A stretch of 64,000 bases of DNA, taken from the NCBI GenBank assembly GCA_012295275.1, contig CM022666.1, forward strand, positions 1,116,001 through 1,180,000. Reading direction: 5' to 3'. The notes under the pieces are model-generated. The model saw only the letters and a list, made by a program, of their open reading frames with translations, was not told where the DNA came from and ran no database searches. Position 1 is the stretch's first letter; every line of letters begins with the position of its first letter. This DNA comes from Chrysomallon squamiferum (lineage: Eukaryota > Animalia > Mollusca). Shown here one piece after another: positions 57,401 to 60,400 of this stretch. The translations under genes and the position numbers were made by a program.

Positions 57401-60400
57401 ACTTCATTAAAGGGGAATTTCATAATGATAGCCTGTCTTCAAAAAAGTGTATACTCTTCTGTTGATGTTGCAGTTTTTGTTTGTGTAGTCTTTGTATTGT
57501 ACTGGTCTGTTTTAGAGTTTCAAAAAAAAATAACTGTTTCTGTTCTATTTTGGGTGGATAAATATTATTTATAAACTTTTGTTAAATAAAGGTTACATTT
57601 ACTTTTGTAAATCCACTAATATTCAATGTTGTATTTTTGTCTTCATCATCTTTTTATTTTCATTTTTTTTTTTCTATGACTTATTCACAGTATACCTTGA
57701 AAAATTACATCCACATTTTTTTTTTTCTTTAACGTTATTTCTTTCATTTTACTTAAATTTTTTTTTTTTTTTTTTTTTTTTAAATCCACAAACACATACA
57801 TACATACACACATACACACACACACACATACATACATACATTCATTTCTGCAGCAGTGAAATAGAAAATTTACTGTTTTACTGACAGTTTACCCTATGCA
57901 GTAAATCTGGTACATGCCCAGTGAAGTTAATATTATTGCCTATGATAGTGATTATTATTTTTGACTGTGTGTGATTGTTACATGTTAAATGTGTTTGCAG
58001 GGGATCACACTGAAAGTGAATGAACAAGGACAGTGTTTTGTAGCCAGAATAATGCATGGAGGAATGATACACAGACAAGGTGAGGCACCAGTCTAGTTAT
58101 TTACTTTTACAGTCTAGTTATTTACTTTTACAGTCTAGTTATTTACTTTTACAGTTTAGTTATTTACTCTTACAGAAGTAATTTTATAAATATATAGAGT
58201 AAAAAAATAAAAAACAACAACAAAAACTATAAAATAAAATAAAATAAAATCAAAAATCAAAAATAATAAAATAAAAAATAAGTTAAAATAAATAAATAAA
58301 TAAATAAATAAATAAATAAAAACATCATTAATTCGTTAAATAGAAAGATATCTTTTATTTGATTATTTATGTAATTATTACAATTATTATTACTAATTAT
58401 TATTATTATTATTATTAAATTTTTTATTTTTTTTTTATTTTTTATTTTTTTTATTATTATTATTATTTTTTTTTTTAATGTATTATTTACATTTTTAATT
58501 TATTACTGTTGTTATTACTACGATTAAACACTATAACAACAACTATAACCAGAACAGCAACCAAACCGCCACTACCACTAATTACTATGTCTCTCTTTGT
58601 TAGTGTTGTTTTATATCTGTTATTTGTCTAGGCACCCTGCACGTTGGTGATGAAATAAAGGAGATTAATTCAGTTAGTGTGGCAAACCAGCCAGTCGAAG
58701 CCTTACAGAAAATGCTGGTATGTAATGTCTTGCTGCATATTTGTATCAGTTGTTTAAATTTTATTTTTAAATTATTTATTTATTTATTTAATGATTTATT
58801 TATTTATTTATTTATTTATTATTATTGTTTTAATTTTAAGTTTATAATAACATTTAAAACATAAACAGAAGAAAAAGGTTTTTTTTGTTGTTGTTTTCAT
58901 ATGATGTGGTTAAAAATTTACTTTCATTACTGTGTAAAAATATGCATACAAAATGATATTAAGAAAAGTAATAAAGTAAAGACTTGGTTAACTAATTGTC
59001 ATACTTTATTATTAGCAAAGTTAATTTCAAAAAGTATACAAAAAATTATTTAGATCATTGTTTCATTCTTAACAGTGACAGCTCTCAAATGTTCTTTTTT
59101 TTTTTTTTTTTTAAATGTCATCTGTCAACATTCAAAAAATATTTATGCCAATTTATTTTGTTTTATTATTATTATTATTATAATAATAATTAAAATTATT
59201 ATTTTATTTTTATTTTATAATTAAACAATTTATTTGTTCTCATCTATTTTGTTTATGTACCAAGTTGCTCATCTTTCTTTCAGTCACTGATTTGAATCTA
59301 CAAAATGAAAATCTGTTTATAATTTGCAGTTTAAGTTTCAGACATGTATGAATGCAAACAGACAAAGGGAGGGAGGGAGGGAGGGAGGGAGAGAGAGAGA
59401 GAGAGAGAGAGAGAGAGAGAGAGAGAGAGAGAGAGAGAGAGAGAGAGAGAGAGAGAGAGAGAGAGAGAGAGAGAGGGAGGGAGGGGGAGGGGGGAGGGGG
59501 GAGGGAGAGAGAGACAGAGAGATAATGAATGCATGTGAATGTGAGTGTGTCTTTTAATTACTATATTCAAAACACAGCAGACTAAACTTGTTAATACTAA
59601 ACTTGTTTTTTTCTCCACTTGTTTTATGCTGTCATTCTAGAAAAACCTTCGCGGTGCTGTCATGTTCAAAGTGTTACCGTCGTCAGATGGGAATTATAAA
59701 AATGACAACCAAATGCATCCCGAGGTATGTGAATGCTGTGGTCTCAAGCCACCCTTTCACCAGTGACTGGGTGCATTATTCAAATTTTACATTCTTTTTT
59801 TTTTCCTTTGAGCACTGTGATATTCTTCTTATTGCAGAAGGACACACATGGCAACTTAACGTTGAAGATCATACCTAGTTATCGAATAAATCCTGCCCAG
59901 TGCGAGGTAACCCATGGGGGAGTGATATCCCAGCATGCAGTTGTGCCCTCGTGATCTTGATATTTTAACGCAAAACAAATGAAACTGCTTTGATTGTATT
60001 TGTTTGAAACAGTATTTGAGATATCTTTTTTTTTAATATCATCCATTTTGTTGTTTTTGGAGCTGTCAGCTTTTTTTCTTTCTTTTAAGTTTTTTTTTTT
60101 TATTATTTTTATTTTTTTTTTTTTTTAGTGTTGCTTTTAATGTCTAAAATCCCACATAAAAGTGCATGAAGCTTTCATTTATTTCAAATTTGAACATTTA
60201 TTTATTAATTTTAATCATGCCCATAAGAATCCTAGACAGTATTTTTACAAATCTTTTCCTCTTTAAAAACAAAATTAGAATAAGCCAATGTAAAAAATTT
60301 GTTAATTCTGCTTCTATACTGTTTAAATAAATTATGTATTATAAATTTATTTACTTATTATTTATTATTATTATTAAAACTTTGTCAAATATCCTGATTA

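Follow-up and report, generated by a model that had tools for sequence, protein, structure and literature searches.

The CASK gene of Chrysomallon squamiferum carries, side by side, two exons (here called F1 and F2) that encode versions of the same short segment, the C-terminal strand of the PDZ domain together with the linker to the SH3 domain, and the question raised by this arrangement is how old the two copies are, whether both are in use, and whether a transcript takes one of them or both. A tblastn search of the 64-kb stretch of DNA analysed here (the window) identified seven CASK segments, which follow each other in order from 18375 to 62808 with 53-96% identity to CASK of Gigantopelta, and in a homolog search with the 68-aa exon listed in Table 1 the best match was CASK of Gigantopelta aegis, other molluscs reaching ~65%. 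Since the L27, PDZ and SH3 exons most resemble CASK proteins, the gene can be assigned to CASK on the basis of these similarities; the window covers these three groups of exons, with the N-terminal CaM-kinase and the C-terminal GK domains lying outside it. The L27 exons (18375-18464, and the stretch 27678-55697) are set apart by long AT-rich introns of ~9 kb and ~28 kb. The exon at 58001..58079 presumably covers the betaB to alphaA region of the PDZ domain, and the intron ahead of the second PDZ exon holds a short tandem array of ~6 copies of an 18-nt unit (57243-57345). Rfam gave no matches across the window.

Table 1. Positions in the window of the CASK exons around the F1/F2 pair, with the evidence for each
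Feature	Position	Strand	Evidence
CASK exon (68 aa) running from the end of the second L27 domain to the first PDZ strand	55697..55900	+	84% to Gigantopelta, tblastn, splice sites
CASK PDZ exon	58001..58079	+	tblastn 96% to Gigantopelta; AG/GT ends
CASK PDZ exon ending in helix alphaB, common upstream exon	58632..58717	+	tblastn 93%; 3' end precedes F1 in 4/4 RNA contigs
Exon F1, PDZ C-terminal strand and PDZ-SH3 linker, derived longer copy, 28 aa	59641..59724	+	spliced on both sides in 4/4 RNA runs; 21/28 identical to Gigantopelta; 99/99 branch
Intron between F1 and F2, 113 nt	59725..59837	+	pattern scan
Exon F2, ancestral-type copy, 23 aa	59838..59906	+	17/23 identical to Haliotis F2; tblastn E 8e-7; seen unspliced only
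First SH3 exon, common downstream exon	62710..62808	+	tblastn 89%; 5' part follows F1 in 4/4 RNA contigs

The initial annotation of this DNA had described the pair as two phase 0-0 exons with open frames and canonical splice sites, 113 nt apart, and the positions, frames, peptides, phases and spacing were all reproduced: F1 (84 nt) is bounded by tag/AAA...GAG/gtatgt and F2 (69 nt) by cag/AAG...GAG/gtaacc. The two peptides are identical at 8 residues, and a gapped alignment of the DNA matches 38 bases. The motif G-x-h-x-h-K-h-h-P-S occurs twice in the six frames of the window, once in each exon, and in none of 30 base shuffles, a count that shows rarity only, as the motif was derived from F1 and F2 themselves. 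F1 and F2 lie next to each other, are homologous, have the same phase and retain their splice sites intact. Inclusion of both would keep the reading frame, as had been claimed, and gene models of relatives with both exist.

In order to place the two copies, the segment bounded by helix alphaB and the start of SH3 was parsed from homolog searches, cluster look-ups and a representative search, in a sample without annelids, brachiopods and echinoderms, which yielded 29 F1 and 18 F2 peptides along with six single-copy outgroup rows (arthropods, a tunicate and vertebrates). When scored without its own taxon, each of the 47 exon peptides falls nearer to its own class, and in a tree of 29 columns, which omits two shortened Octopus F2 rows, the F1 class, nemerteans included, makes up one side of a branch with 99/99 support. 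The F2 class is 23 aa long and ends in PSxR/Q...CE in 18/18 rows, and so are and do the single-copy outgroup rows (6/6). Members of the F1 class are 26-35 aa long (29 rows) and never have the CE end; 18 of the 29, nemerteans among them, have His three residues from the end. The betaF strand carries Phe, as in the outgroup, in 23/29 F1 rows and Leu in all 18 F2 rows. Thus, the splitting of conserved features between the two exons, first seen in this one gene, is clade-wide. As its length and its PSxR/Q...CE end match those of the single outgroup exons, F2 can be taken as the ancestral-type exon and F1 as the longer, derived one.

The proposal of an old duplication maintained by selection is supported by these class assignments and by the window exons, F1 being identical to that of Gigantopelta at 21 of 28 residues and F2 to that of Haliotis at 17 of 23, with some changes at the N-terminal end relative to the F2 class. 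Both classes are found in gastropods, bivalves, cephalopods and nemerteans, and wherever a lophotrochozoan model includes both, F1 comes ahead of F2. The mollusc-nemertean split dates to the Cambrian or earlier. Three flatworm proteins have only the F2-like form with Leu, which hints at an origin of the pair before the flatworm split. An alternative strand peptide was found in none of the arthropod, tunicate and vertebrate CASK proteins parsed (no Drosophila record among them), which vary by insertions behind the strand peptide. When metagenomes were scanned with the 68-aa exon, 20 loci were recovered; five are spliced transcripts bearing one exon of the ancestral type, and none of the 20 reached the F1/F2 region as genomic DNA.

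The reading that we favour, with a probability of about 0.8, is that F1 and F2 arose by tandem duplication and have been retained by molluscs and nemerteans, each transcript likely taking one of them, so that the PDZ-SH3-GK module would be built with either a short ancestral (F2) or a longer remodelled (F1) hinge. RNA from C. squamiferum, in the form of assembled contigs from four runs of one study, documents the use of F1: junctions 58717>59641 and 59724>62710, which the initial annotation had suggested counting, are present in the contigs of all four runs, and the main contig of each run joins the upstream exon to F1 and F1 to the SH3 exon, at depths of 107, 39.5, 27.1 and 29.1. Neither the F2 junctions (58717>59838 and 59906>62710) nor the F1>F2 joint (59724>59838) were seen in the contigs of the four runs, or in those of three of them together with run X5, which looks like DNA and has no listed cover of F1 or F2. 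Since minor variants are dropped in contigs, the absence of spliced F2 from them does not amount to the absence of F2. Low-depth unspliced contigs cover F2 and its flanks in 4/4 runs; this cover is not counted as F2 expression, because the rest of the downstream intron is covered in patches at similar low depth. One low-depth contig from one of the four runs ends at 59837, where the upstream-exon splice and the unspliced path would merge, and is only a hint of F2 splicing. Given the conservation of F2, we infer that it is used in this species in another tissue or stage.

The RNA would also agree with F1 being constitutive in this lineage and F2 silent or nearly so, since F1 alone is spliced in every run; the models of the nearest relative, Gigantopelta, have F1 only (4/4), and the window F2 shows the N-terminal-end changes mentioned above. 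We nonetheless consider this improbable: over the distance to Haliotis, an unused exon would not be expected to keep both splice sites, an exact 23-codon frame and that many of the Haliotis residues, and the contig end at 59837 points, weakly, in the same direction.

Whether one exon or both are used was assessed in 181 lophotrochozoan gene models, of which 96 contain F1 only, 58 F2 only, 26 both and one neither; these are a sample (at most 15 members per cluster; eight partial records in which the region is missing and one cut short after the exon were omitted) of mostly automated models, which lack independence and cannot be read as counts of expression. The numbers for F1 only, F2 only and both are 6/9/0 in Haliotis (of 15), 10/4/0 in Patella (of 14), 7/4/0 in Biomphalaria (of 11), 7/4/0 in Mercenaria (of 11), 2/24/0 in Mytilus (of 26) and 11/6/1 in scallops (of 18), so that none of the 77 models from the first five genera includes both exons. 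The prevalence of F2 in Mytilus (24/26) is a poor fit to a simple rule of nerve versus other tissue. Besides Gigantopelta, models with F1 only make up the whole set in Babylonia (5/5), in oysters (26/26) and for the main chiton gene (7/7), and transcript-type proteins of cephalopods include intact F1-only (P0638) and F2-only (P0639, P0640) forms.

The 26 double models come from Octopus (12), Lineus (6), Physella (2) and, one each, Lottia, Pomacea, Lymnaea, Ruditapes, Pinctada and Ylistrum, which corresponds to 18 of 25 models within Octopus and Lineus and 8 of 156 outside these two. The F2 copy of Octopus bimaculoides and O. sinensis (P0020, P0142) is only 18 aa long and no longer includes the strand; it follows F1 wherever it occurs (12/16 models) and is never present alone. 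Here an exclusive exon has apparently become a linker cassette. In Lineus both exons are present in 6/9 models. The suggestion that the exons are mutually exclusive fits the great majority of gastropod and bivalve models but not those of Octopus and Lineus, and across lophotrochozoans exclusivity appears to be usual, not absolute. In the chiton Liolophura a second CASK gene (P0487) carries an ancestral-type exon, and the first gene (the P0115 cluster) has F1 only in all seven of its models; it is possible that in this case the splice forms have been partitioned between gene copies.

Double inclusion, which stays in frame, and the Octopus and Lineus models would be in keeping with another arrangement, in which the PDZ strand comes from F1 and F2 may be added to lengthen the linker, similarly to exons 19 and 20 of vertebrates. 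For the window pair, however, this is less probable still, as F2 retains the full strand, the F1>F2 joint is absent from the RNA contigs, and the five genera named above have no double model among 77. That F2 is a terminal exon or a retained intron, leading to a short CASK that ends after the PDZ domain, is very improbable: the unspliced cover of F2 in all four runs and a frame that stays open for 15 codons past the F2 donor before reaching a stop would allow it, but the remaining intron has the same patchy low-depth cover, as from pre-mRNA or DNA, and such an isoform is absent among the models of relatives, apart from one truncated Mytilus record.

If F1 and F2 are used as exclusive alternatives, a mechanism can be proposed by analogy. 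According to the accessible part of PMC7969005, exons 4a/4b of OGDH and the exons of alpha-tropomyosin are kept exclusive by a branch point less than ~50 nt from the upstream donor. The F1-F2 intron is likewise short, and a pattern scan places a candidate branch adenine at 59766, 42 nt from the F1 donor and ahead of a U-rich tract (~59784-59810); such proximity would block F1>F2 splicing sterically. Unlike in the cases described in the available text of that paper, the F1-F2 branch point is predicted from pattern only, and this reading is weakened by an AG at 59811, between the tract and the F2 acceptor, and by a rival adenine at 59820, an ordinary candidate 17 nt from that acceptor. We regard steric blocking as the lead candidate for the cause of exclusivity, albeit a doubtful one. 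The local RNA fold at the F1-F2 intron is not unusual (z -0.21), and among 507 inverted pairs the 25 longest are simple repeats, with nothing specific to competing pairings. A GA microsatellite (59359-59410) and a CT-rich tract (61237-61288) flank both exons and are 73% complementary over 52 nt, which is probably a chance pairing between simple repeats.

Tandem duplicated exon substitution events have been catalogued for human, fly and worm (PMC9741552, PMC8373072). The CASK pair resembles them in that the homologous exons are adjacent, of equal phase and ancient, and replace one short segment while the core residues are kept; it differs in the unequal length of the copies (23 vs 26-35 aa) and in the lapse of exclusivity in Octopus and Lineus. 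CASK is unnamed in the main text of both papers and in one supplement file of PMC9741552. Variation of this linker by cassette insertions in vertebrate CASK, mentioned in the initial annotation, is borne out by the accessible parts of PMC8208546 and PMC10573301, which describe two such exons in the PDZ-SH3 linker, exon 19 of 69 bp and exon 20 of 36 bp; their effect on the flexibility and binding of the module is, in the available text of PMC8208546, a speculative proposal of its authors. Splicing of F1/F2 alters the same hinge, but the vertebrate exons, as far as these texts describe them, insert behind a single constant exon and do not replace the PDZ strand. Human exon 19, which also encodes 23 aa, was considered as a decayed duplicate and rejected: its peptide shows no similarity to the duplicated exon, since 440-891 of 3000 shuffles reach a score at least as high. 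Unrelated cassette insertions are found directly behind the strand exon in arthropods, Lineus, Mytilus, Styela and vertebrates (P0050, P0093, P0047, P0364, P0490). On comparison of these proteins, the PDZ-SH3 linker of CASK can be regarded as a recurrent site of alternative splicing.

In CASK of amphioxus (Branchiostoma; P0007, P0101, P0122) the strand exon likewise has a tandem duplicate, and there 8 of 22 RefSeq models have the first copy only, 6 the second only, 7 both and one neither; the copy with the CE end is again the second. Unlike mollusc F1, both amphioxus copies are 23 aa long, and their scores place them near the ancestral class. Because both look ancestral-like, an independent duplication in amphioxus is favoured, with the qualification that grouping of the first copy with F1 is not rejected by the AU test (p 0.46).

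As to what the swap would change in the protein, most residues of the PDZ groove presumably lie in the constant CASK exons. The swap starts at PDZ residue 71 and spans the end of the solved CASK PDZ domain (6nh9, 1kwa) and, in the solved PALS1 module (4wsi, 7m4r), the linker. Since it begins after most of the peptide groove, it would tune the seating of the PDZ domain on SH3-GK, and with it the U-shaped, dimeric state, and leave the class of ligand unchanged. AlphaFold models of the Haliotis F1 and F2 isoforms (mean pLDDT 54.6 and 55.3, pTM 0.34, the segment mostly <50) are too poor to interpret. According to the accessible part of PMC12666738, tight binding of neurexin requires the whole U-shaped, dimeric module, and the GK domain is part of the ligand site; a swap in the hinge and a swap in GK would thus have a common target.

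In relatives, the models show a second duplicated pair in the GK domain, at a site that lies beyond the window end. Two Gigantopelta isoforms (P0124 vs P0125) differ by a homologous swap from residue 823 onward. The short form has 27 aa (28 aa in vertebrates and arthropods) and the long form mostly 32-35 aa; both occur in gastropods, bivalves, cephalopods, a chiton and nemerteans, the short one first where they are joined. E24a, a 40-aa insertion specific to mammals, is subject to alternative splicing in the GK domain of CASK (PMC3447378, accessible part); it adjoins an 84-bp exon that would correspond, judging from length and peptide, to the 28-aa segment duplicated in molluscs, but in that source it is an insertion, not a duplication.

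The choices at the two sites appear to be associated in relatives. Among 144 models in 18 strata, 60 combine F1 with long GK, 16 F1 with short, 25 F2 with long and 35 F2 with short, the other 8 being of different composition; F1 goes with long GK and F2 with short GK in 10 of 11 informative strata (sign test p 0.012, Mantel-Haenszel odds ratio 10), p values that are overstated because there are congeneric species among the strata and the models are not independent. The sole informative stratum against the association is Mytilus californianus. A pipeline that introduces a single event at a time into a main model would make the double variant rare, yet F2 with short GK is common. Short-read contigs reveal the dominant forms of a sample, not the exons that share one molecule; among 12 transcript-type proteins, eight are F2 with short GK (seven from cephalopods, and the Lymnaea UniProt entry, which we take to be a cloned cDNA), three F1 with long GK and one F2 with long GK. 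Under co-regulation, F2 with short GK would give an ancestral-like module and F1 with long GK a derived one. It is tempting, if tentative, to regard the two pairs as a coordinated two-site switch of lophotrochozoan CASK, in which ancestral-like or remodelled modules are chosen by cell type, and to suppose that the hinge duplication was perhaps already present in the bilaterian ancestor, kept in amphioxus and lost in vertebrates and arthropods, with later decay to a cassette in Octopus and partition between gene copies in the chiton.

A literature search, which covered few subscription journals and few supplements, found no description of the hinge pair or the GK pair, and RefSeq already lists the isoforms without comment. 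What the comparisons point to is a real, ancient and mostly exclusive exon pair of CASK, present in annotations, with a function that is predicted only. Its interest lies in the PDZ-SH3-GK module, which sets how tightly CASK holds neurexin-type adhesion proteins. The role of the hinge has so far been argued mostly from models and from the human cassette exons; molluscs supply two natural hinges, both kept since before the mollusc-nemertean split and both present in animals that serve as models in neurobiology, such as Aplysia, Lymnaea and cephalopods. Any single cloned mollusc CASK cDNA would then represent one of up to four modules, and if the choices at the hinge and in GK are coupled, CASK may offer a clear example of a single structural module in which two pairs of duplicated exons co-evolve.
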